From the IMG/VR virus record IMGVR_UViG_3300022697_000186, positions 109,091-173,090 of that record: a stretch of DNA of 64,000 bases, one strand, 5' to 3'. Below the pieces are notes generated by a model. That model was not told the DNA's origin. It saw nothing but the letters and a program-made list of their open reading frames with translations, and ran no database searches. Shown here one piece after another: positions 3-51,129 of this stretch. The translations under genes and the position numbers were made by a program. This DNA is from a virus. Taxonomy: Duplodnaviria > Heunggongvirae > Uroviricota > Caudoviricetes. Position 1 is the first letter of the stretch, and the number at the start of each line of letters is the position of its first letter.

Positions 3-851
3 GGAACATCTAAAGCAGAACAAGAAGTATTAGAATTTGTAAAACAATACTATCCAAATGTAGAAAATCCAAATAGAACTATTTTAGATGGTAAACATAT
101 TGATATCTACATACCAGAGTTGAAACTAGGAATCGAATATAATGGACTTTACTGGCATTCAGAACTAGGTGGTAAAACTAATCCAAAGTATCATCAGAAT
201 AAAACTTTACTAGCTAAAGAAAAAGGTGTTCATTTAATTCAGATATTTGAAGATGAGTGGATTGAGAAACAGAATATAGTTAAAAGTATATTACTAAATA
301 AAATGGGTAAATCACCTAATAAGATATTCGCTAGAAAGTGTAAAATTAAAGAAGTTGATAACAAGATTGCTAAACAGTTTTTATTTGATAATCATTTGCA
401 AGGTGAAATCAATGGAACTCATTTGGGTCTTTATTTTGAATCTGAATTAGTTTCTATGATTTCTATGGGAAAATCTAGATTTAATAAATCATTTGATTAT
501 GAAATTTTAAGATTTTGTAACAAGTTAAACACATCAGTTACTGGTGGATTATCTAAGGTACTAAGTTACTTTAAAAAGTTAAATCATGATAGTTCTATTA
601 TTACTTATGCTGATGCAAGATATGGTGAAGGTAAGGGATATGAGAAATGTGGGTTTGAATATAAGAAATTAACTAGTCCAGGTTATTATTATCTTAAAAA
701 TAATATTAGGGAATCAAGAATGAAATATCAAAAATACAAATTAAAAGATTTATTAGAAGTGTTTGATCCAAATCTTACTGAATGGCAGAATATGCAATTA
801 AACGGTTTCGATAGGATTTGGGATTGTGGTAATTATAAATATGAATTATAA
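3..851 (+). CDS. Free-standing nuclease, copy 1 (Hef-like homing endonuclease family), 5'-truncated by the window edge
   Basis: The frame is open from nt 3 (GTSKAEQEVLEFVKQYYP...). It has the IDIYIPELKLGIEYNGLYWHS PD-(D/E)xK-type motif followed by the ARKC...ITYADARYGEGKGY domain, and is paralogous to 7793-9670, 59900-61675 and 62387-64000. Confidence 0.8.
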   Translation, partial: GTSKAEQEVLEFVKQYYPNVENPNRTILDGKHIDIYIPELKLGIEYNGLYWHSELGGKTNPKYHQNKTLLAKEKGVHLIQIFEDEWIEKQNIVKSILLNKMGKSPNKIFARKCKIKEVDNKIAKQFLFDNHLQGEINGTHLGLYFESELVSMISMGKSRFNKSFDYEILRFCNKLNTSVTGGLSKVLSYFKKLNHDSSIITYADARYGEGKGYEKCGFEYKKLTSPGYYYLKNNIRESRMKYQKYKLKDLLEVFDPNLTEWQNMQLNGFDRIWDCGNYKYEL

Positions 852-4070: not shown

Positions 4071-4084
4071 GGACAAACTATAAA
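4071..4084 (+). promoter_or_regulatory. Candidate late-promoter motif GGACAAACTATAAA
   Basis: Lies upstream of the tail tube gene; the same 14-mer recurs at 4929, 6677, 21534 and 24172, always co-oriented with structural genes. Confidence 0.75.
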
Positions 4085-25703: not shown

Positions 25704-26693
25704 CTAAAGTTCATATGGACAACTAGCAGGATCTTTATATAATACATCTCTAAATTCTTTAAATTTACTTTCATTTTTCCAAACATCAATTATACTTTTA
25801 TCTTTTATAGAAGTACCACTATTATGTTCACATGCTCTAAAAGAACACGGCATTAATTTCATATCATTTGAAATATATGCACTCATTCTTCCACCTTCAC
25901 AAGTATCCAAAAATGTATTTTCTTTTTCATTTATTCCTGATAATTTAACCATCTTATTAACAAGACATGAATCCATACCAATTTTAAAGTTACACTTCAT
26001 ATCTTTATTTCTAATTTTTTCAAAAAATATTTTTAATTTATCTTCTTCTATAATCCAATCAGAAAGTTTTTCACCTTGTCCTGCAGGTTTAAAAAGTAAA
26101 AATATAACAGCATTTAATTTTTCTAAATTTATTTTATTATTCCATATATCTTTACCATCTATTAAATCTAATATATCATCAATTGATTTAGAAGATAATA
26201 TCATATGTATATTTGTTTTAATACCAGAATTAATAAATTTATTTAATGCCTCAAATGTGTAAGGTTTATTATGCATAGATACTGCAACTGCTCCACAATT
26301 CTTAGTAACTTCAATTTGTTCATCTGATATATCTTTACCTGATGTTGTATAATTAGGTACAATTGTATTTGCTACTGTATATTCGATAATTTCTTTAAAA
26401 TTTTCATGCTGATTAGGATCACCTTTACCACCTAAAGCAACCTGGGTTACATAATCTTTAGATTCATTAATTATTTTTTTATAATTATTTAATTCCATAT
26501 TTGGTTCATTTTTATTACCTTGATAACAAAAACTACATGTATTATGACAATGTCCCATAATTCCTATATCTATTAAACTAGGGTAATCTAAAACATTAGG
26601 ATCAGGATTTCCATTAATACCTGTAAGTATTTCTAAACCTGTTTCTGTATTCATTGCTATTTTATATTTATCATTCTCTACTATTTTAATCAT
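25704..26693 (-). CDS. Radical SAM enzyme with a SPASM/twitch-type C-terminal domain
   Basis: CHNTCSFC (CX3CX2C); ALGGKGDP; C-terminal CEGG..SAYI......PCSF...W...F..FR...CP. Confidence 0.88.
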   Translation of the reverse strand: MIKIVENDKYKIAMNTETGLEILTGINGNPDPNVLDYPSLIDIGIMGHCHNTCSFCYQGNKNEPNMELNNYKKIINESKDYVTQVALGGKGDPNQHENFKEIIEYTVANTIVPNYTTSGKDISDEQIEVTKNCGAVAVSMHNKPYTFEALNKFINSGIKTNIHMILSSKSIDDILDLIDGKDIWNNKINLEKLNAVIFLLFKPAGQGEKLSDWIIEEDKLKIFFEKIRNKDMKCNFKIGMDSCLVNKMVKLSGINEKENTFLDTCEGGRMSAYISNDMKLMPCSFRACEHNSGTSIKDKSIIDVWKNESKFKEFRDVLYKDPASCPYEL

Positions 26694-31398: not shown

Positions 31399-32022
31399 CT
31401 AATAGTTCTTTTTTTGTTGACACAACCTCATAAATTCAGCATTGATAGCTAAGTTATCTAAGAAAGAGCCTCGTATTTCAGATGTAATTGCAGACACTCC
31501 AGGTTCTTGTAAACCTCTAGCAATCATACAATTATGTCTACCTTCAACCCAAACACCAATACCTTCAGGTTTTATTTTATCAATAAAAATATCTGCTAAA
31601 TTTTTAGTAAATGTTTCCTGTAATATTGGCTGAGAACCATAAAGTTTAATAACTCTACCAACTTTAGATAGTCCTATGCATCTATCACTTGGAATATATC
31701 CTATTCTAACAGTATATTCTACATTTTCAAAATGATGAGGACATAGTGAATGAACTGTTACAGGTCCTACTACTATCATTCCTTTATATTCAGAAGGAAA
31801 ACTTTTACCTAATAAGTCCATACAGCGTTCTTTACTATTAATACCTTTACATCTTTCTAGTACTAAGGCCTTAGCATTACGTTTAGCTGTTTCTTTAAAG
31901 TTTTCATCTTCCTTCCAATTTAAACCATGTGCTAAATTTAATGCATTAAAAATCTGTTCCCAGGCACCTTCTACTATGGAAAGTGCCTGTTTAACATTAT
32001 CATCCAAATTATCTAAGTTCAT
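31399..32022 (-). CDS. folE: GTP cyclohydrolase I
   Basis: ETAKR, HSLCPHH, GLSK, LQE and HNCMIARG motifs. Confidence 0.92.
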   Translation of the reverse strand: MNLDNLDDNVKQALSIVEGAWEQIFNALNLAHGLNWKEDENFKETAKRNAKALVLERCKGINSKERCMDLLGKSFPSEYKGMIVVGPVTVHSLCPHHFENVEYTVRIGYIPSDRCIGLSKVGRVIKLYGSQPILQETFTKNLADIFIDKIKPEGIGVWVEGRHNCMIARGLQEPGVSAITSEIRGSFLDNLAINAEFMRLCQQKKNY

Positions 32023-35102: not shown

Positions 35103-37787
35103 TTAAAATCTAAATAAATCACTTATAGCAGAAGGTTCATCAGTTCTTGAATTAACTAAACCATCTAATAATTTTTGTTTTAAATTTGAAAACGCTAAAC
35201 CTATTAGCCATGAATTCTTTGATGGTATTTGTAAAATAGAAGTCCAAGTATATGGAGTTTCTTTTCTTAGTTCATGTAATCTCCAAGGAGTCTTACCAGC
35301 AAACATCATACAAGATACAATTATTTCGTAATGTATTAAATGTATACCTTTATATGGATTAAAAATTTCATAAATACATTTCACTAAATCAAATGGTCCA
35401 TTAATATTATCTAAACTTCCTGGTTTATGAAATATTGTATTAGCCATTCCAATCCCACTAATAATATCTTCTTGATCATCTGTTTGTGTACCACTAGCTG
35501 CTTGAGCAACTCCACCAAGATGAAAAGTTCTTAAAACTAATTGAGTAGTTCTTTCACCAACGGCTTGTGTTGCAATTATACCAACTTGATCTGAATGTAA
35601 TATCTTGTATAAATCTCCATAACATTTTTTACAGAGTTTTCTATCTTGACAATAAATAGGAGATCTTAATTTAACAGTTGTACCAACTATCGATTTATAA
35701 TTTTTACTAGTAATCTTTTCTATATGATTATCTTCTGCTATACGGTATCTCCACCATAATGTTCTAGCCATAGCTTCATCATCAACTTTAACCTCTAAAT
35801 AATCATCTGTACCACAATCATCATCTGTACCAAGTTCCATAGAAATTGTACTATATATTAATTTTCTAGTAAGATAACCAGAATCACCAGTTGATAATGC
35901 TGTATCTAATAATCCTTTACGAGATCCATAACAAGAATTAAAAAACTCTTCTTGATTTAATCCCTTAATTAAACTACTTCTAATTAAGTTAGGACGTATT
36001 TTACCACTAATATCAGATACATAACCTCTAGCTAAAACTATTTGTCTAACTTGATCCCAATTACCTCTTGCCCCAGAATCAACAAATTCAGCAAATGGAA
36101 ACTCTCTAAGTTTAACCATTACTTCATCACTATTCATTTTAGCTATATCTTCTTGTACATTACCAGTTAAGTCTGCGGATATTCCATCAAGTACATCAGA
36201 ATATAAATCATCTATACCTAAAGTATAGCCTTTTAATGTTGCATGTGTAAAACCTAAACTTTTTATTTTATCTAAAGTTTCCATAACAACATCAGGTGAA
36301 TAATGTAAAGCTACATCATTTAATAAATTCATTAATTCTTTATCTTTTAAAGGTTCATCTATTAATCTATAATCTTCAGGAAAACATTGATTAATTAAAT
36401 ATTTTCCAAATGGTAATTTCTTACCTTTAATTTCTTTTAAATTATCTTTGGAATCATTACTTGATAATGCATATATTCCTAAAATTATATCTAAATCAGG
36501 TCTAGGTACAATACTTATATCAGTAGGTGATACTAGGTTATTCCAAATACCTAATTTTTCTTTAGCATCTTTAATTCCTGCTTCAGTTGCTGGGAAATAA
36601 ATAGCCATAGCATCACCATCAAAATCTGCATTAAATGGTGAACATACCATAGGATGTATTTGTACAGTATTTCCTAAATGAGTACTAACTTTAAAGGCGA
36701 GAATTCCAAGTCTATGTAAAGTTGGCTGTCTGTTTAATATACAAACTTTATCAACACAAAATTCTTCAACTATATTAAATAATTGAGTATCTTTAGATTT
36801 AATACAATCTTCAATTAGTTTAACAGATTGATTGTATCTTTTACATACCCTTCTATTTACCAAGTATGCAGATAATTGAGGTTTAAGTATTTCTAAAATC
36901 ATCCAATAAGGAACTTTACATGTATCAATAGTTAAATTAGGATTAGGAGATATAACTGCTCTTCCACTAAAGTCAAGTCTCTTACCTAAAATATTTGATC
37001 TTATTAATCCTTTTTTCTTAGACATCTTCTTTAATATGTAATCATATAATTTAATTACTGTCTGTTGAATGTGTTTAAAGTTACTTCTATAAATTTCATT
37101 TGATTCATTGACTTGAAACTGTATACTTTTAACGTTATTAGATCTAATTAATATAGTAGAATATAATTGATTAATTTCATCAATAACTCTTATACCTGTA
37201 TTATTATTACCACATGGTCTAAAATCTGGTGGTATAACTATCACATTTGAAAAAGAAATTTTATCAAAATTATCTCTGATAAATTGAAATTCTTGTTTAT
37301 CACTATTCTCTATGAATTTTTCAATTATTGTAATAACACCTTTTAATCCTATAAGTCTCTCTGTACCTTCAATAGGTTTAATAGTATCTGTTTCTTTAGT
37401 AATTATATCATCAATATTATAAAAATAATGATTAGTATAATTTAACATATCATCTATTATTGTTTTTAATGTAGTTTTAGATGTAGTAATTATATAATAA
37501 AATATAGGATTCAGTATAGGAAATGGTAAAGTAATTTTAGCGTACCTTTTTCTACGTTCTTCTGAATTAGTTATATCTACATTGCATTCTGTACATTTTT
37601 TTGCAGTATTAGAACGTCCTCTATATGTTGCTCTATTACAAACACAATAATAAGATTTTACTGGACCAAAAATTTGTTGACTGAACAATCCATCTCTAGC
37701 AAATTTACCTGACTCAAAAATCTTAGGATTAATAACTTCAGGCATTTCTTTTGTGTATTGATCAACATTAAATATATCAAGATTCAT
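35103..37787 (-). CDS. rpoC: Phage multisubunit RNA polymerase, beta' subunit
   Basis: GLFSQQIFGP, N-terminal Zn finger, PPDFRP, LGKRLDFSGRAVI, LNRQPTLH, catalytic NADFDGD, SGYLTRKL and GERTTQLVLRTFH motifs. Confidence 0.97.
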   Translation of the reverse strand: MNLDIFNVDQYTKEMPEVINPKIFESGKFARDGLFSQQIFGPVKSYYCVCNRATYRGRSNTAKKCTECNVDITNSEERRKRYAKITLPFPILNPIFYYIITTSKTTLKTIIDDMLNYTNHYFYNIDDIITKETDTIKPIEGTERLIGLKGVITIIEKFIENSDKQEFQFIRDNFDKISFSNVIVIPPDFRPCGNNNTGIRVIDEINQLYSTILIRSNNVKSIQFQVNESNEIYRSNFKHIQQTVIKLYDYILKKMSKKKGLIRSNILGKRLDFSGRAVISPNPNLTIDTCKVPYWMILEILKPQLSAYLVNRRVCKRYNQSVKLIEDCIKSKDTQLFNIVEEFCVDKVCILNRQPTLHRLGILAFKVSTHLGNTVQIHPMVCSPFNADFDGDAMAIYFPATEAGIKDAKEKLGIWNNLVSPTDISIVPRPDLDIILGIYALSSNDSKDNLKEIKGKKLPFGKYLINQCFPEDYRLIDEPLKDKELMNLLNDVALHYSPDVVMETLDKIKSLGFTHATLKGYTLGIDDLYSDVLDGISADLTGNVQEDIAKMNSDEVMVKLREFPFAEFVDSGARGNWDQVRQIVLARGYVSDISGKIRPNLIRSSLIKGLNQEEFFNSCYGSRKGLLDTALSTGDSGYLTRKLIYSTISMELGTDDDCGTDDYLEVKVDDEAMARTLWWRYRIAEDNHIEKITSKNYKSIVGTTVKLRSPIYCQDRKLCKKCYGDLYKILHSDQVGIIATQAVGERTTQLVLRTFHLGGVAQAASGTQTDDQEDIISGIGMANTIFHKPGSLDNINGPFDLVKCIYEIFNPYKGIHLIHYEIIVSCMMFAGKTPWRLHELRKETPYTWTSILQIPSKNSWLIGLAFSNLKQKLLDGLVNSRTDEPSAISDLFRF

Positions 37788-38559
37788 TAAAATCTCCTAA
37801 TTTTTTAACAAAATTTGGAACCCAGTAACAATTTAATAGGTTCATAATTTTAATTTGTTGTAATATTTTCTTTAAACTCTGTGAAGTTAAAGGTTTAAAT
37901 AATAAATTATCTCCTAAACAATAATAACCATTCTTATCACAGTTAGGATGTTTAATATCTAATTTTACAGATATAATCAAACCATTAGGATCTGTATCAA
38001 TACATACCCTATTAATTGTTAATACATCTTTTTTAGGTATTTTTTTAATTAAATTGTTATCACCATCACTAACATATATATTATTAACAGTAATTTTTTC
38101 ATATATTTCTATACCTAAATCTGTTGTTACCACATTAGGATGTTTTTTTGTAAGCTCTTTATAACACTCAGATAAATGAGTTAAGCATCTACGTATGTCA
38201 TATTCTAATAAAAATATTTTCTTTTTAAATTCTTTTTTCTTACCAAACTTCTTTTCATAAAATTTAACAATTTCATTAAGACCCATCCAATTAAAGACAA
38301 TAATAGAAAAATTATTTTGACCTAATACTACTAAAGTATCTTCACCATCTAGTATTTTTAATTTATTAGCTTTAGCTTGTTTTGTTATTTTCTTTCTTAA
38401 TTTATTACTAGATTTATATAATTTAAAATTATTTGACCCCTCAAATATTTTAGCGGATAGAATTATATTATTTTCATAAAGATCTCCAGAATCTATCTTC
38501 TCTTTTATAAAATTATTAAGTGACTTATCTAGTTTGGATTTTGTGATAATTAAATTCAC
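37777..38559 (-). CDS. E2 (UBC)-like protein 2
   Basis: C-terminal HPNCDKNGYYCLG (HPN-x7-C, canonical E2 spacing); overlaps the rpoC start. Confidence 0.55.
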   Translation of the reverse strand: MNLIITKSKLDKSLNNFIKEKIDSGDLYENNIILSAKIFEGSNNFKLYKSSNKLRKKITKQAKANKLKILDGEDTLVVLGQNNFSIIVFNWMGLNEIVKFYEKKFGKKKEFKKKIFLLEYDIRRCLTHLSECYKELTKKHPNVVTTDLGIEIYEKITVNNIYVSDGDNNLIKKIPKKDVLTINRVCIDTDPNGLIISVKLDIKHPNCDKNGYYCLGDNLLFKPLTSQSLKKILQQIKIMNLLNCYWVPNFVKKLGDFNES

Positions 38560-39663: not shown

Positions 39664-39921
39664 TTATGCTGACTCTACAATAGGAAGAAAATAAATATTT
39701 AACTTTTTATTATCATGATCTACTTCCGATGCTAACATATAAGTTAAATTAAAATTACCCATATATTTTTGTATACTATTTTTATTATAATTAGATTTTA
39801 TAATTTTTCCATCTGGTAGATGTAAATAACATACATATTTTAAATAACTATTACATAATTTTAAAGTCTCTTCATGTGATAGAATTTTCTTTTGACTTAC
39901 TTTTAACTGATTTTGGGACAT
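39664..39921 (-). CDS. Hypothetical protein (85 aa)
   Basis: Overlaps the end of the upstream ThiF-like gene. Confidence 0.55.
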   Translation of the reverse strand: MSQNQLKVSQKKILSHEETLKLCNSYLKYVCYLHLPDGKIIKSNYNKNSIQKYMGNFNLTYMLASEVDHDNKKLNIYFLPIVESA

Positions 39922-42174: not shown

Positions 42175-42939
42175 TCATTGATCTCCATAATTATAATCTA
42201 GATGATTTAACCATTCTTCTTCTGTCATTTCATGTATTTTAGGTTCTCTTCTTGCCATCGATTCTAACGTTTTATCTTCTTCTTTTTCTTCTTCTTCACC
42301 AAAGTCTGGGCTGATTTTTTTTTGATTAAGATAAGGAAAGTTTCCTGAAAATTTATTATTTACACCATGTAGATTATAATTGTCATTATAAGTTACAATA
42401 GGAGAAGTAATTTTATTTAATTCTTCTTCCGGTATATCTACATCAGTACCTTGTACCTCAATATCAGTTTTTACTATAATATATCCGTATTCAGTTTTTA
42501 CTCTAACTTGACCTGTTTCAAATTTAGAATTCACCCAGAGTAAACTAATATCAAAATTTCTATTTATATAATCATCGTCTGTACTACTAAAAACTTTCAT
42601 ATTTTTTGGATGCTTATGTATTACGCAATTATATCCTTCTGGTGCATCTTCATTATAATCTACTGCAGCAGGAGATACTTCTTGTTTTGGAATAAAGAAT
42701 GCTTCATCTATAATTATATTTTTATCTTCTTTTATATATTTACCTTTACAAAATATAGAAAATTCATCATCTGAAAATTGTTTATCTATTTTACACATAA
42801 CATTTTGTATATGTTCTGGTACTATACATTTAATTTTATTTATTGGATCTACATCTTTATTTTGCCATGGTACTGGTGGTTTAACAACTTTACCAGCATG
42901 TCTATTAGTAAAACCAGCACCCTTTTTCTTTTTATTCAC
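42175..42939 (-). CDS. JAB/JAMM metalloprotease
   Basis: N-terminal Glu (DEF) and HKH...FSSTDD (HxH-x7-S-x2-D). Confidence 0.8.
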   Translation of the reverse strand: MNKKKKGAGFTNRHAGKVVKPPVPWQNKDVDPINKIKCIVPEHIQNVMCKIDKQFSDDEFSIFCKGKYIKEDKNIIIDEAFFIPKQEVSPAAVDYNEDAPEGYNCVIHKHPKNMKVFSSTDDDYINRNFDISLLWVNSKFETGQVRVKTEYGYIIVKTDIEVQGTDVDIPEEELNKITSPIVTYNDNYNLHGVNNKFSGNFPYLNQKKISPDFGEEEEKEEDKTLESMARREPKIHEMTEEEWLNHLDYNYGDQ

Positions 42940-43748: not shown

Positions 43749-45080
43749 TTAAATTCTCCTAAATTTCTTACTAACTTTAATATCTTTAGCTTCAACATCA
43801 ACTAAATCCATTTTAGTTTGCCATGGACCATCATCATCATCAAGTGAATTTATATCAATATAAGCACTATCATAATTAATAACATTTAATACTTTTTCTA
43901 CTTCTTTTATAAAATTTATATAATTAGATATCGTAGTGTTACTATTTTCAAGTAACTTCTGATATTTAATAGATAGTTCAACTCCAATACATATAACATC
44001 ATCACCAGCATTTACATTAGGATGGGAACCAAAAGCATACATTAAAAATGAACCATTAACTAATTTATGGGGATCTAATTTCAATTTGGTTATTTTAAAT
44101 ATTCTATATTTCTCTTGGATTTTATAATTTAAACTATTATGTACACAAATCTCTGGATTAATATTTACATTTTTAATCCAATTATTATGTTCTTGTTCAT
44201 AACCTAATGAAGATAATGCCGAAGTTAATTGCGTGCCAATAGAAATTCCATTTTTAAAAGATTTTTCTTTATCAAATTTTGTTTGCTTAATCATTGCAGT
44301 TAATGAATTCCTATACATTTCATTTGAATTCTGAAGAATAATTGATTGTGAACCAATAGAAGTCCTAGATTTAAATACTAATCTTATAGAATCATTAACT
44401 AATCTAGGTATATTTATATTGGATATATTACTATCATCTAATTTATCACATATATATCCTAACATTTTAAGCATTATATCTTCTCTAAGTAATTCTAAAT
44501 CTTTTAGTTCATCATTATCAATTAAATCATAAGCATTTAATACCTTTTTACAATAATTAAAAATATTACTTATAGCATCACGGGCTTGTTGTTCATCTAT
44601 TTTTATTAATCTTAAGAAAACATCTTGTAATATAAATATTTTCCCATCAATTCCCATATATGCTAATACAATATCTTCTTTTCCAATAGTACATATAGAG
44701 TTTATTTTTTTTGTATTATCACTAGAATAATTATGGTTTATATATGATGATGTATATCTTTCTAAATATTTATGTTCAGAATCTATTATTGTTTTTATTG
44801 GTAGTATATTAAACATACCTTCAGAATAAGATTTTACATGTGGTAATTTATTATATATGTTTTTATAAGAATTTATACTATAATTAAATTTTATTGTTTC
44901 AACAACCGTACAATATGGTAATAATCCACATTTTTCAGCTTCTTCATTTTTAATTTTTTCTAAAATTATTAATAATTTTTCATCAGAAGTAATTTTATTT
45001 TTATTATTCCAAATAACTCCTGTTCGTTCATTATCTATTGTAGTCATACCGTCTCCGTGATCATTTTGTTGCACGTACAT
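43749..45080 (-). CDS. E2 (UBC)-like protein 1 (C-terminal domain) with a long N-terminal region
   Basis: GSHPNVNAGDDVICIG (HPN-x8-C) and a downstream LNVINYDSAY helix; directly upstream of the E1 gene. The start is probably GTG 45074. Confidence 0.65.
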   Translation of the reverse strand: MYVQQNDHGDGMTTIDNERTGVIWNNKNKITSDEKLLIILEKIKNEEAEKCGLLPYCTVVETIKFNYSINSYKNIYNKLPHVKSYSEGMFNILPIKTIIDSEHKYLERYTSSYINHNYSSDNTKKINSICTIGKEDIVLAYMGIDGKIFILQDVFLRLIKIDEQQARDAISNIFNYCKKVLNAYDLIDNDELKDLELLREDIMLKMLGYICDKLDDSNISNINIPRLVNDSIRLVFKSRTSIGSQSIILQNSNEMYRNSLTAMIKQTKFDKEKSFKNGISIGTQLTSALSSLGYEQEHNNWIKNVNINPEICVHNSLNYKIQEKYRIFKITKLKLDPHKLVNGSFLMYAFGSHPNVNAGDDVICIGVELSIKYQKLLENSNTTISNYINFIKEVEKVLNVINYDSAYIDINSLDDDDGPWQTKMDLVDVEAKDIKVSKKFRRI

Positions 45081-45093
45081 CCTCCTAAATTAA

Positions 45094-45133
45094 ATGTGGT
45101 TATCAATAGATATTAATTTACTGATAACCACAT
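45094..45133. terminator. 12-bp perfect inverted repeat between the Ubl-like and E2-like genes
   Basis: ATGTGGTTATCA (45094-45105) / TGATAACCACAT (45122-45133). Confidence 0.6.
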
Positions 45134-45140
45134 ATCTTAA

Positions 45141-45701
45141 TTAACCTGCTTTATTATATCTTTCAACACCTAAAAGTATTACAGCTGAATCTAAATTAAC
45201 ATCAGAAGGATTAGCAACTGATGTATTTTTTATTAAATCTGTAACTAGAAATGTACCTATTCCTTTTTCGTCACTATATTCTTTTATCGCCTTAAGTACA
45301 TCATCTGAATTAGCAACTTTATATCTATGAGTGTTATCATTATTAATAACTAAAAGCCTTTCATCTGCTTCTAACTGTACCTCACACTTATCACCAGCAC
45401 ATTTAATAGCTGCAGTACCATTTGATTGATTTATATTAATATCATAACCGCTTGCATTAGAGGGCATTGACATAATAGTATCACTAGATGAATCTTCTTC
45501 TTCAGCAACGTAGTATAAAGTTCTACCACTTTTAGTTATTTCTCTGAATACTTTTTTTTCAACTAACTCTTTAATTATTTCTGTAACTTTATCATTCTTT
45601 TTAGAATATCCTACAGCTTTAGATATGGCAGTTAATGATAAAGCATCATCTTCTTCATCAACTATAATTGTTTTAATTATTTTAGTTTTTAATTCTGACA
45701 A
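45141..45701 (-). CDS. Winged-helix + ubiquitin-like (beta-grasp) fusion ending in ...YNKAG
   Basis: N-terminal wHTH pattern; C-terminal beta-beta-alpha-beta-beta-beta pattern with a terminal Gly; immediately upstream of the E2, E1 and JAB genes. Confidence 0.6.
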   Translation of the reverse strand: MSELKTKIIKTIIVDEEDDALSLTAISKAVGYSKKNDKVTEIIKELVEKKVFREITKSGRTLYYVAEEEDSSSDTIMSMPSNASGYDININQSNGTAAIKCAGDKCEVQLEADERLLVINNDNTHRYKVANSDDVLKAIKEYSDEKGIGTFLVTDLIKNTSVANPSDVNLDSAVILLGVERYNKAG

Positions 45702-48054: not shown

Positions 48055-50253
48055 TCACATTGGGAGATGCTCGTCTACTTCAATATGATCTCGTAAAGTA
48101 TGAGAAATCAAAACTACACATTGTACTTCTGAAATTTTTCTTATCATACTTAAAACTACGTTTACATTATTAGGATCTAGTGAATCTAATATTTCATCTA
48201 ATATCAATATATTAAATCTCACACTATGCATTGATTCTAATAAATGTCTTAATGATAATAGACAGATTAACTCAATCAATCTACCTTCTCCTCTACTCAT
48301 ATCTTCAACACTATCAGTAAGATTATTAGTTTGAATTGCTGAAATAGAAAATTTATTTCTTAAATCACCACTTTTTAACTGTTGTTGAGAATCAAATCTT
48401 ACTCTTAAACAATCTGTTAATGAAGATAACTCTCTTGATTTATCATTAATTATTGGTATACTTTCGTCCAATAAAATAGATTTAATACCAGTATCAGAAA
48501 ATGCTTGTTTCCAAAAATCAAGAATATTTAAATCTGATTCTAACTTATTAATATCATCACTAATAGTTTTAGAAACATTTAATTCTTCTTCTATTTTCAA
48601 CTCTAATTTACCTATTTTAGATTTAATATCATTAATTAAAATTTCAGAATTTTTAGTTACATTTTTTAATTCAATAGTTTTACTTTCTAATTTGGAATTA
48701 AGTCTTATTAAATCCTGATTAGAATTTTCAAAATTCTCTAATTCTATTATTAAACCATCTAATTCTTTTTCTAACTTTTGTTTTTCATTAGAAGATTCTA
48801 TTGTTTCTTTCTTATATGTATTAAAAATATTAACTTTAAAATCTTTTAAATTTTTATTTAAATCTTCTAATTTAGAACTAAGTTTAGAACTAATTGTTTC
48901 TTTAATTCGAAGCATTTCTTTTTCTGCAGTATTCAATTTGTTTGAGAAATCAACTTCTAAATCTTTTATAGTAATCTGTAACTGATTAATTTTTGTAGTA
49001 GTTTCTGATTTTTTAATGTTTAATAATATTAGTTTATTATTTTGTTCTAATAAAGAATCTTTATTTAATTTTAATTCAGTTTTAACTTCATCTAAACTAG
49101 TTTCTCTAATCTCTTGTTTACATACAAAACAAGTTGGTGTATCTTTATTCAAATCATTCTCAATTTCAGATATTTTAAACTCCAAATTCTTAATTAATTT
49201 TTCAATAGTTTTTATATCATTAGTTATATTAGAATCTTCTAGTTGAACTATATTTAAATCTACTTTTATTGGATCTTTAATTCTTGATTCTTCTAAAATT
49301 ATTTCATTTTTAGACGCTTCGAATTTTGATATACATTGATCTTTAAATGAATTAGCTTCAGCATTAATTTTATCTATTTGATCTTTATTCGATTCTTCAG
49401 TATTTTTAATCGTAATATCAATTTGTTTCTCAGCATCATTAATTTTACTAGTTAATATAGTAAGACTATTTTGAATCTTTTCCTTTTTAGTAATTAGATC
49501 TTTAGGATCTTTTTTAGAATTAGATTCTAAATTTTTAATCAGAGAAATTATACTTGAAATATCTTTATTTAATTCATCAATAGTATTATTATTTCTATCT
49601 ATTATATTATTTAAATTAACCTTTTCTTCATTAAGAAAATTAGTATTATTATTAATTAAAGAATCTTGGTTTTCAAACTCTTGAGATTTAGATTTAAATA
49701 AACTATTATGTTCAGATATAGAAGCTTTAGTAGCTTTAGAATATACTTCGTATTTTTCTAATCCTAACATTTTGTCTAGTATACCTTTTTGACCACTATG
49801 TGTCATTTCAGAAAATGATTTTTCATTATCATTTTGACCAAACAACAAACAATTTAAAAATATATCTGAAGGCATTATTAAATCTACAATACGTTCATTA
49901 ACTAGTTTTCTTGATTCTGAAATATCTTTTCCATTCATAATAAGAAATTTATTATCATTGTATTGATTATGTTTCCTATAATTTCTTATTTCAAAATGAT
50001 CATCATCTATAGTAAATTTTAATATTACTGAACAATTTTTACCTGTTCTTTTTCTAATAACTGAATCACCTTTTCTACCCTTAATTGTGATATCATATAG
50101 AGCCCACATTATAGCATCACCTGGTATAGTAGATTTACCTGCTCCATTATCTCCAGTTATCATAACAAGCCTATTAGGTTGGAAACTAAATTCCATAAAT
50201 TCATGATTCCTAAAGTTTGTTACTTGAATATTTTCAAAATTGACTTCTCTCAT
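48055..50253 (-). CDS. sbcC: SbcC/Rad50-like ATPase (T4 gp46-like)
   Basis: Walker A GDNGAGKS, coiled coils, CFVC zinc hook, signature SRGE, Walker B ILILDE, and SH motif. Confidence 0.92.
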   Translation of the reverse strand: MREVNFENIQVTNFRNHEFMEFSFQPNRLVMITGDNGAGKSTIPGDAIMWALYDITIKGRKGDSVIRKRTGKNCSVILKFTIDDDHFEIRNYRKHNQYNDNKFLIMNGKDISESRKLVNERIVDLIMPSDIFLNCLLFGQNDNEKSFSEMTHSGQKGILDKMLGLEKYEVYSKATKASISEHNSLFKSKSQEFENQDSLINNNTNFLNEEKVNLNNIIDRNNNTIDELNKDISSIISLIKNLESNSKKDPKDLITKKEKIQNSLTILTSKINDAEKQIDITIKNTEESNKDQIDKINAEANSFKDQCISKFEASKNEIILEESRIKDPIKVDLNIVQLEDSNITNDIKTIEKLIKNLEFKISEIENDLNKDTPTCFVCKQEIRETSLDEVKTELKLNKDSLLEQNNKLILLNIKKSETTTKINQLQITIKDLEVDFSNKLNTAEKEMLRIKETISSKLSSKLEDLNKNLKDFKVNIFNTYKKETIESSNEKQKLEKELDGLIIELENFENSNQDLIRLNSKLESKTIELKNVTKNSEILINDIKSKIGKLELKIEEELNVSKTISDDINKLESDLNILDFWKQAFSDTGIKSILLDESIPIINDKSRELSSLTDCLRVRFDSQQQLKSGDLRNKFSISAIQTNNLTDSVEDMSRGEGRLIELICLLSLRHLLESMHSVRFNILILDEILDSLDPNNVNVVLSMIRKISEVQCVVLISHTLRDHIEVDEHLPM

Positions 50254-50678
50254 TAATCCTCAGTATACTCAGCAAAACTAGTTGGTGTTTCCCATACCTT
50301 AACAGATGTTACTTTTACAGTTGAATGTATATTATTTGATGTTAATCCTCTATCCACTCCTTCAAAAAAATATTTGGTCATTGCTTCAGCAGTAGGATCT
50401 GTTTCAAATGTAGTAAGTATAATACTTTCATCTGGAAGTTCATTTATATAAGGATCTTTTTCATTTAATATCATACCATGATCAAATGGTTTTAATAATT
50501 CATTTACTATCTTTTTAAGATCTCCAAAGTCAACAACCATATCATTTTCATTTAAATTTTTACTAGTTAAAGTAACTTCAATTCTATAGTTATGTCCGTG
50601 AAAATATTTACATTTCTTTTTATGCTTACTTAATCTATGTCCTGCTTCAAAATCGAATGATTTAGTTACACTATACAT
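50253..50678 (-). CDS. queD: 6-carboxy-5,6,7,8-tetrahydropterin synthase
   Basis: FEAGHRL, C...HGHNY, DFGDLK, FDH, PTAE and WET motifs; start set to ATG 50678 (RBS AAGGAG). Confidence 0.93.
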   Translation of the reverse strand: MYSVTKSFDFEAGHRLSKHKKKCKYFHGHNYRIEVTLTSKNLNENDMVVDFGDLKKIVNELLKPFDHGMILNEKDPYINELPDESIILTTFETDPTAEAMTKYFFEGVDRGLTSNNIHSTVKVTSVKVWETPTSFAEYTED

Positions 50679-50688
50679 TAAATCTCCT

Positions 50689-51129
50689 TTAGTGAACATA
50701 TTTTGAATTATTATTATTAAGATATTCATCCATATTAGATGGTGTTGATATACCTAATCTATTAATTGAATCATTTAATGCACAATTAAATTCTTCTTTT
50801 GTAATCCCAGCAAGTTCATTTATCTCTTTTATAAACTTCCTTAATACGTTATTCGCTACTTCATTTTTAATACCTAGATGCTGCTGCATTAAAGTTTCTC
50901 TAGCAGTTATATCTAGTAATTCTCTAAGTTCAGAACCGCTAAACTCTAAATTTATTTTAAACTTTTTACCAACTTCTAATTTTTTTAATTTTTTAGAAAT
51001 AGATTCCATAGGTGAAACTTTTTTATTTATTCTAGACTTAGTTTTTAGTTTAGCCTTAATAGACTTTTTCTTCGAAGATTTTAATTTAGTTACTTTTTTC
51101 TTTACTACTTTTTTACTCTTTACTACCAT
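50689..51129 (-). CDS. Protein with a very Lys-rich N-terminus
   Basis: VVKSKKVVKKKVTKLKSSKKKSIKAKLKTKSRINKK. Confidence 0.6.
   Translation of the reverse strand: MVVKSKKVVKKKVTKLKSSKKKSIKAKLKTKSRINKKVSPMESISKKLKKLEVGKKFKINLEFSGSELRELLDITARETLMQQHLGIKNEVANNVLRKFIKEINELAGITKEEFNCALNDSINRLGISTPSNMDEYLNNNNSKYVH

Follow-up and report, generated by a model that had tools for sequence, protein, structure and literature searches.

The 64,000-nt stretch of viral DNA analysed here (hereafter the window; positions 109,091 to 173,090 of the IMG/VR record IMGVR_UViG_3300022697_000186, assigned to the Caudoviricetes) carries on its minus strand a gene for a 186-amino-acid (aa) protein, P0001, in which a winged helix precedes a ubiquitin-like domain. 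We refer to this protein as the tag. The genes on this strand are arranged in the following order: a conserved upstream protein (324 aa), the tag (186 aa), a probable E2-like conjugating enzyme (443 aa), an E1-type adenylating enzyme (E1a, 264 aa), a JAB/JAMM metallopeptidase (254 aa), a Gat-QueC protein (563 aa) and a degenerate paralogue of E1a (E1b, 200 aa) (Table 1). The whole record, which comes from an uncultured giant bacteriophage, is 236 kb long, with a G+C content of 27% and an estimated completeness of ~69%. Its genes code for SbcCD, for a DNA ligase and a helicase, for an RNA polymerase of two subunits and for part of the 7-deazaguanine pathway. We compared ten loci by BLAST and alignment: the window and nine additional loci that contain a homologue of the tag or of E1a (L001, L009, L016-L018, L020 and L022-L024). 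Locus searches conducted with sub-alignments yielded 2, 3 and 3 loci. Among the phage records of GenBank, zero matches were obtained using either the cassette (megablast) or the tag (tblastn).

Table 1. Features of the tag locus and of related genes in the window (coordinates are window positions).
Feature	Coordinates	Strand	Properties
Conserved upstream gene, 324 aa	45714..46688	-	Precedes the tag gene in loci with a Gly-ending tag
Tag P0001, winged-helix and ubiquitin-like protein, 186 aa	45141..45701 (stop codon included)	-	Open reading frame (ORF), TTG start, AAGGAG ribosome-binding site, homologues, model
Winged-helix domain, residues 1-66	45504..45701	-	Model helix-helix-helix-strand-strand; structure and profile matches
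Acidic linker of low confidence, residues 67-83 (EEEDSSSD...)	45453..45503	-	Predicted local distance difference test (pLDDT) <50 at residues 71-73
Three-strand beta extension, residues 84-110	45372..45452	-	Conserved G85-Y86; strands 87-91, 96-100 and 107-110
Ubiquitin-like beta-grasp domain, residues 111-186	45144..45371	-	Model and Smt3 superposition
C-terminal tail N183-K184-A185-G186	45144..45155	-	Family motif [RK]-H-N-K-A-[GA], then 0-15 variable residues
Intergenic stem-loop, from the tag stop codon to the ribosome-binding site of the E2-like gene	45081..45140	-	15-bp stem, folding free energy -20.5 kcal/mol, z -4.9
E2-like protein (probable), 443 aa	43749..45080	-	Core residues 278-411 (43848-44249), HPN 353-355 (44016-44024), Cys364 (43989-43991)
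E1a, ThiF/E1-type adenylating enzyme, 264 aa	42954..43748	-	Pfam ThiF 1e-20; GLGGIG 41-46, SNLNR 73-77, DCRD 139-142
JAB/JAMM metallopeptidase, 254 aa	42175..42939	-	H-x-H-x7-S-x2-D at residues 108-121 (42577-42618)
Gat-QueC, class II glutamine amidotransferase and QueC PP-loop domain, 563 aa	40474..42165	-	Neighbour of the cassette; 7-deazaguanine gene
E1b, degenerate ThiF paralogue, 200 aa	39872..40474	-	Keeps GCGxxGS and IDCRD; lacks the SNLNR arginine
ORF of 85 aa ending in ...PIVESA	39664-39921	-	Overlaps the end of E1b
Second E2-like gene, 260 aa, HPNCDKNGYYCLG	37777-38559	-	End overlaps the start of rpoC (RNA polymerase beta-prime)
FolE (7-deazaguanine gene, dispersed)	31399-32022		
QueD (7-deazaguanine gene, dispersed)	50253-50729		
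Radical SAM protein, QueE candidate (7-deazaguanine gene, dispersed)	25704-26693		

The tag gene starts with a TTG codon that is found 7 nt past an AAGGAG Shine-Dalgarno sequence and 12 nt past the stop codon of the upstream gene. The C-terminal end of the protein reads ...VILLGVERYNKAG, and the ORF stops at ERYNKAG. An exhaustive phmmer search against 1.8 billion representatives identified 79 proteins at E ≤ 1e-3, including 29 at E ≤ 1e-10, and the family alignment comprises 74 members, all metagenomic representatives. No significant model match to the tag was found in Pfam, PHROGs or PADLOC, and searching the viral structures of BFVD returned only weak ubiquitin-fold matches.

We built an AlphaFold2 model of the full tag on the 74-sequence alignment (mean pLDDT of 92.4). 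Residues 2-65 were modelled as three helices followed by two strands that form a beta-hairpin wing. When this part was searched against 48,161 PDB chains with VIA-align, which is independent of Foldseek, the top matches were the winged helices of TtgV, Fur, ArsR, MarR and IclR proteins and of Zalpha domains (Z of 8-9.5 over 58-72 residues), and the superpositions presented a root-mean-square deviation (rmsd) of 1.6-2.6 Å over 58-66 residues. The family profile also matched winged helices weakly, the best being RPA32 (3e-4), followed by ADAR1 Zalpha, AdcR/MarR and DsvD. An earlier note, made from the sequence of the window, had described a winged helix-turn-helix pattern at the N-terminus and an acidic linker after it, and the model bears out both. 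The linker constitutes the sole low-confidence stretch of the model; in homologues its length varies from 14 to 132 residues and its composition is mostly acidic. The conserved positions of the winged helix are T24, K28, G31, K34 and Y63, with R/G-Y at positions 59-60; K28 is located on the second helix, K34 at the start of the third helix and Y63 on the wing.

Eight homologues (P0003, P0025, P0053, P0060, P0061, P0072, P0076 and P0077) present an N-terminal part of 126-150 residues, about twice as long as that of the tag. In L005, a second match to the winged helix covers the first 67 residues (BLAST, 6.5e-5). Judging from these sequences, the eight long homologues probably possess tandem winged helices ahead of the beta-grasp domain.

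The C-terminal half of the tag was also modelled on its own (residues 78-186), which yielded a pLDDT of 93.8 and a predicted template modelling score (pTM) of 0.85. The best match of the beta-grasp domain was Smt3 (1euv_B; Z of 7.4, rmsd of 2.7 Å, 72 of 79 residues aligned), and this alignment pairs positions 34..109 of the model with positions 20..98 of the chain, thereby reaching the final residue of both. Further matches included SUMO1/2, FAT10, ISG15, UBX, PB1 and the ubiquitin-like protein (Ubl) of a bacterial Bil system (8tyz_B, Z of 5.8). A Z of 6-7 is not decisive alone; however, the match lists for this half consist almost entirely of ubiquitin-fold domains and the alignment runs end to end, and the beta-grasp assignment, as a reading of a predicted structure, is therefore safe. 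The secondary structure assigned to the model by DSSP (strands 115-119 and 126-129, helix 132-146, strand 151-155, 159-160 and strand 174-181) agrees with the strand-strand-helix-strand-strand-strand unit that had been listed from the letters alone, and the beta-grasp fold proposed there holds. The same description did not contain the three-strand extension that precedes the beta-grasp domain, in which G85 is conserved in at least 90% of the family alignment.

The most conserved positions of the 74-member family are found in the C-terminal tail, where each of N183, K184 and A185 is shared by at least 90% of the members. The motif closes with Gly in 48 of the 74 members and with Ala in the remaining 26. 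The expectation that the KAG ending would be kept among homologues was thus correct for the lysine and the alanine, but not for the terminal glycine, which is not fixed. Most Gly forms (37 of 48) extend past the motif by 1-15 unconserved residues; the homologue P0002, for instance, ends in NKAG-K. The tag of a further locus, L022, presents a tail of 10 residues. By contrast, most Ala forms (21 of 26) end exactly at Ala-Ala. Only four of the 74 members end in Gly-Gly. The extra residues that follow the glycine are as would be expected, by analogy, of a tail trimmed by a peptidase: Bil Ubls present the same pattern of disposable residues past the tail, and these are removed by their own JAMM peptidase (PMC10557695).

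The gene that follows the tag encodes a protein of 443 aa in the window (414-729 aa across loci), which is conserved in its last third only (residues 278-411). The invariant elements of this core are a W, H353-P-N, C364-x-G and IN-x-DS-x-Y, with a spacing of HPN-x6-8-C-x-G. The active-site signature of E2 enzymes is an HPN followed by the catalytic Cys 8-10 residues further on. Profiles of the core were searched against PDB, where 15 of 16 matches in one search and 28 of 29 in another were E2 enzymes, at E-values of 0.07-1.8 that are not significant, and the alignments pair HPN..C with HPN..C at a matching distance from the start of the domain. These sequence comparisons suggest that the 443-aa protein is a probable E2-like enzyme.

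A word-based homologue search with the 443-aa protein retrieved the protein itself only. Its aerolysin-like feature matches in the ESM Atlas (0.84-0.87) fall within the range of shuffled sequences, and the structure matches from the same Atlas were discounted because its model presents a pLDDT of 0.29. The idea that the protein is a hidden DpdA or tRNA-guanine transglycosylase (TGT) found no support, as there was no Pfam match at E ≤ 1 and no member of the TGT family was detected in the 236-kb, ~69% complete record.

E1a shows similarity in PDB to MccB, MoeB, UBA5, ThiF, NAE1 and UBA1 (1e-15 to 1e-7). Across E1a and 38 aligned orthologues, R20, GxGGIG, D66, SNLNR, K89 and DCRD are all kept, and Y169, T175, D177, Y191 and S196 do not vary in the segment after DCRD where the crossover loop would fall. 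The degenerate features of E1b suggest that it might be an inactive partner, by analogy with the E1s of eukaryotes and of Bil systems, in which one adenylation domain is inactive (PMC10557695). For both E1a and E1b, the best matches in the defence library were the E1-E2 (Cap2) models of PADLOC. The predicted complex of E1a with the C-terminal domain of the tag lends weak support and carries little weight: it scored 0.46, and the highest-scoring of three controls 0.22. At least 84% of the contacts are common to the runs, with a partner pLDDT of at least 81. In the calibration of the tool, 58 of 80 solved complexes attained the score mark, as did two of 110 mismatched pairs, and the passes at or below 0.60 comprised seven of the 80 solved complexes together with both mismatched pairs. 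Because E1-Ubl complexes have been solved, such a pass may only mirror the likeness to known complexes.

The metal-binding motif of the JAMM peptidase is invariant in all ten loci, and the Pfam Prok-JAB match of the window protein (6e-4) is below the cut-off. The Ala-type peptidases of two loci (L016:13295-14245 and L017:13278-14288) carry a C-terminal CxxC...CxxC segment, possibly a zinc ribbon, that the Gly-type loci lack. The tag, E2-like, E1a and JAMM genes are contiguous and in this order in ten of ten loci with an E1b gene nearby, and the tag proteins of these loci share 26-37% identity. The phage contigs reach 307 kb in length, and in them the cassette is flanked by SbcCD, helicase and ligase genes on one side and by RNA polymerase genes on the other. 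The three Ala-Ala loci (L016-L018) are rearranged, with SbcD and SbcC following the JAB gene.

From these results we consider it rather likely that P0001 is the modifier of a phage-encoded E1-E2-JAMM ubiquitin-like conjugation system and not a free-standing transcription factor. That the tag is conjugatable is a well-founded inference, drawn from the fusion fold, the conserved tail and the presence in ten loci of a cassette with an E1, an HPN...Cys protein and a JAMM. We infer each step of the conjugation chemistry, the pairing of E1a with E1b, the target proteins and what the winged helix binds as follows. The JAMM would trim the tag to an exposed N-K-A-G or N-K-A-A carboxyl end, or the tag would be made with such an end, as in this phage, whose ORF already ends at Gly186. 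E1a, probably paired with E1b as an active/inactive dimer, would adenylate the carboxylate. Since E1a lacks a conserved cysteine, Cys364 of the E2-like protein would receive the acyl group straight from the adenylate or via a hydroxyl side chain of E1a. The large and variable N-terminal part of the E2-like protein would select the target, to an amine of which the tag would be transferred, and the JAMM could reverse this attachment. The attached payload would then be a whole winged helix on a flexible acidic linker, serving either to bind nucleic acids or to dock onto proteins. It is conceivable, but doubtful, that the module is covalently fastened to DNA- or RNA-associated machinery such as the phage's own two-subunit RNA polymerase, or to nucleoid or defence proteins of the host; a polymerase target would fit the overlap between a second E2-like gene and the start of rpoC.

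Several observations weigh against this interpretation. Approximately one third of the family ends in Ala-Ala instead of Gly, which is unusual for conjugated Ubls. E1a possesses no conserved Cys outside of DCRD, so the canonical thioester step of E1 enzymes is missing. The probable E2 assignment stands on a motif and on the sub-significant E-values given above (0.07-1.8). The winged helix is not basic (the median net charge of the family is 0) and its nearest sequence-profile match, RPA32, is a protein-binding winged helix. In addition, all loci may come from a single broad lineage of phages in which gene order is kept, and the argument from linkage would then be weaker; the rearranged Ala-type loci offset this caveat only in part. 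Finally, the phage is uncultured and the conjugation system is predicted from its genes.

The spacer that separates the tag from the E2-like gene is 45-89 nt long in every locus, and the remaining genes of the cassette abut or overlap. In the window this spacer contains a stem-loop, and the nine other loci present a hairpin in the same spacer that is unrelated in sequence and equally strong (z of -2.1 to -6.2). A run of at least four U residues directly follows the stem in five loci; in L001, L020 and L018 the run reaches at least six, which resembles intrinsic terminators. It is possible that the hairpin is an attenuator, a terminator or an RNA-stability element. If it terminated part of the transcription past the tag gene, or stabilised the 3' end of the RNA there, more tag than enzymes would be produced, and such an excess would fit a consumed substrate better than a regulator.

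Two further genes of the window might belong to the same system. The product of the second E2-like gene aligns with the core of the first E2-like family over 77 columns (hhalign, E of 0.003), and L022 possesses an orthologue of it that is likewise found before rpoC. The 85-aa ORF that overlaps E1b ends in E-S-A, and its orthologues, found after E1b in L001, L020, L022, L023 and L018, invariably have E-S-A, E-A-A or S-S-A as their very last residues. Based on this ending, the ESA-tailed protein may be a second modifier. The existence of these two genes implies that the conjugation system may be double and that the partner assignments are provisional.

Alternatively, the tag might not be transferred at all and might act as a winged-helix regulator or adaptor that docks into E1/E2-type enzymes, either as a decoy or inhibitor of host Bil, Bub or CBASS (cyclic-oligonucleotide-based anti-phage signalling system) Cap2, or as a recruiter of phage enzymes to DNA while another protein, such as the ESA-tailed one, is the modifier. 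Ubiquitin-fold docking modules are common (UBX, PB1 and RBD are among the fold matches of the tag), hosts are known to possess Ubl defences directed at proteins of phages (PMC11601596), and both a second E2-like gene and the ESA/EAA/SSA-tailed proteins after E1b (in six loci) are available for such a scenario. Docking domains of this type, however, do not keep a fixed small-residue motif at the C-terminus followed by disposable residues, and in ten of ten loci the run of E2-like, E1a and JAMM genes adjoins the tag gene, not the ESA gene. The ESA family was further rejected as a relative of the beta-grasp family, to which it presents no sequence similarity (hhalign probability of 0.6%). We judge it unlikely that the tag is a non-conjugated adaptor.

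In seven loci the Gat-QueC gene separates JAMM from E1b, and this proximity has to be weighed in two other scenarios. The tag could be a sulfur carrier of the ThiS/MoaD/TtuB/SAMP type, with adenylation by E1a, conversion to a thiocarboxylate by a persulfide and transfer of the sulfur to a nucleobase or cofactor, perhaps via the PP-loop enzyme Gat-QueC, while the JAMM would only mature the tail, like Mec+ for CysO. A beta-grasp protein, a ThiF enzyme and a JAMM are also the trio that marks the CysO and QbsE systems (Iyer 2006, PMC1779556), and E1a resembles MoeB in lacking a catalytic Cys. Nevertheless, known carriers end in Gly-Gly and not in K-A-G or K-A-A, an HPN...Cys E2-type protein always lies between the tag and E1a, and neither a rhodanese (PF00581) nor a cysteine desulfurase (PF00266) was found in the 236-kb, ~69% complete record. 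We regard a sulfur carrier as quite improbable. In the other scenario, the carboxyl end of the tag would be joined to a 7-deazaguanine derivative or to modified DNA, with Gat-QueC supplying or activating the base, by analogy with the deazaguanylation of type IV CBASS. QueC-family enzymes are reported to be able to attach deazaguanine to proteins (10.1101/2025.04.06.647259, PMC13279940), and FolE, QueD and a radical SAM protein are present in the record, where no match to the TGT/DpdA family was detected (236 kb, ~69% complete). This gene set can be explained without the tag: DpdA is also missing from phages in which G is replaced at the nucleotide level (PMC10516641), and the deazaguanine modification may be made at that level here or by an unrecognised transglycosylase. 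Moreover, the known chemistry uses a TGT-like partner and a protein N-terminus, neither of which is seen here. We regard a deazaguanine conjugate as very improbable. Both scenarios also face the absence of Gat-QueC, or of any PP-loop enzyme, within 10 kb in the three Ala-type loci, which excludes Gat-QueC as a core partner of the tag. Gat-QueC is probably a lineage-specific neighbour that is part of a separate deazaguanine pathway, and the dispersed FolE and QueD genes account for its presence.

Considered as a conjugation system, the cassette resembles BilABCD, the bacterial ISG15-like systems of types I and II, in its parts. Both consist of four components (a Ubl, an E2 with a catalytic Cys, which in the phage would be the probable E2-like protein, a JAMM and an E1) without an E3 (PMC10557695, 10.1101/2024.11.21.623966), the Ubls of both carry a small conserved C-terminal residue and a few disposable residues that the JAMM removes in Bil, and Bil Ubls are architecturally diverse. 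In contrast to Bil, a bacterial defence operon, the phage cassette is found among replication and transcription genes. Its E1a is a protein of 264 aa with a single adenylation domain and has neither the helical CYS domain nor a conserved Cys beyond DCRD, the degenerate domain being encoded by a separate gene (E1b); its E2-like domain ends a protein of 414-729 aa; and its tail can end in Ala. The winged helix also differs from the N-terminal domains listed for Bil and Bub Ubls, which are disordered, coiled coil or DUF1508. The Bub system (6E/DUF6527) offers a different parallel, since its E1 has no catalytic Cys and forms an oxyester via an invariant Tyr of the crossover loop (PMC11601596). The phage E1a likewise possesses invariant residues after DCRD (Y169, T175, Y191 and S196), and Bub Ubls also bear varied N-terminal domains. 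However, the phage E2-like protein keeps HPN...Cys in place of the catalytic serine of Bub, and its peptidase is a JAMM encoded separately, where Bub has a DUF6527 serine protease. No Pfam match to DUF6527 was obtained at E ≤ 1 with any of the seven proteins of the cassette, and E1a matches the BubCD chain of PDB at 6e-6 relative to 1e-15 for MccB.

The Cap2/Cap3 pair of type II CBASS also attaches a functional protein by its C-terminus through E1/E2 chemistry and frees it with a JAMM. Cap2, however, unites E2 and E1 in one protein with catalytic cysteines, it acts on a cGAS-like enzyme without a beta-grasp domain, and the system serves host defence. The archaeal SAMP/UbaA/HvJAMM1 and Thermus TtuB/TtuC systems combine a beta-grasp protein, a ThiF-type E1 and a JAMM, and both conjugate proteins and carry sulfur. 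These systems have no E2, possess Gly-Gly tails and are linked to tRNA thiolation enzymes, none of which applies to the phage cassette. The only earlier pairing of a Ubl and a JAB that has been described in phages is that of the tail assembly protein I of lambda and T1 with the JAB domain of protein K (PMC1779556), which lacks an E1 and an E2, lies in the tail gene cluster and involves an N-terminal Ubl domain that is released, not conjugated.

The literature that we searched, in one library, contains no description of a phage-encoded E1-E2-Ubl-JAMM cassette or of a winged-helix Ubl. To our knowledge, complete prokaryotic Ubl conjugation pathways (Bil, Bub and CBASS Cap2) have so far been described as anti-phage defences of bacteria. 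Eukaryotic viruses already use ubiquitin-like chemistry. If our interpretation is correct, bacterial viruses would use it as well, through their own tag, E1, E2-like enzyme and JAMM encoded among core replication and transcription genes. Conjugation would then deliver a functional binding module instead of a passive mark, a logic that differs from degradation tagging, and tethering by the winged helix, if true, would be a new reversible way to retarget a protein or to tether it to nucleic acid. An E1 without a conserved catalytic cysteine, divided over one active and one degenerate gene and combined with a canonical HPN-Cys E2, would stand between the mechanisms of Bil and Bub, and such a split E1 bears on the origin of the heterodimeric E1 of eukaryotes. 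The parts of the cassette are all small and suited to co-expression in E. coli.

The remaining observations concern neighbouring genes and repeats. The 324-aa protein encoded upstream of the tag was without a match in PDB and Pfam. In L009, a TnpB/Cas12f-like gene (L009:8716-9801, minus strand; Cas12f1-like TNB domain, 7e-24) is inserted between this conserved upstream gene and the tag gene. The Gat-QueC orthologue of the same locus (L009:14026-17022) is 998 aa long, and an intein with a homing-endonuclease region (PT-HINT, NUMOD3 and Intein_splicing) splits its QueC domain. Finally, the motif GGACAAACTATAAA is present in 11 copies in the window when up to two mismatches are allowed, relative to 1.7 expected, and none of 100 shuffles reached 11. 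No copy with at most one mismatch is found before the tag cassette in the window. The five best sites, with at most one mismatch and four of them exact, are located at positions 4071, 4929, 6677, 21534 and 24172, in addition to six weaker ones. Each of these five is found just upstream of a gene and in the same orientation, as phage promoters would be.

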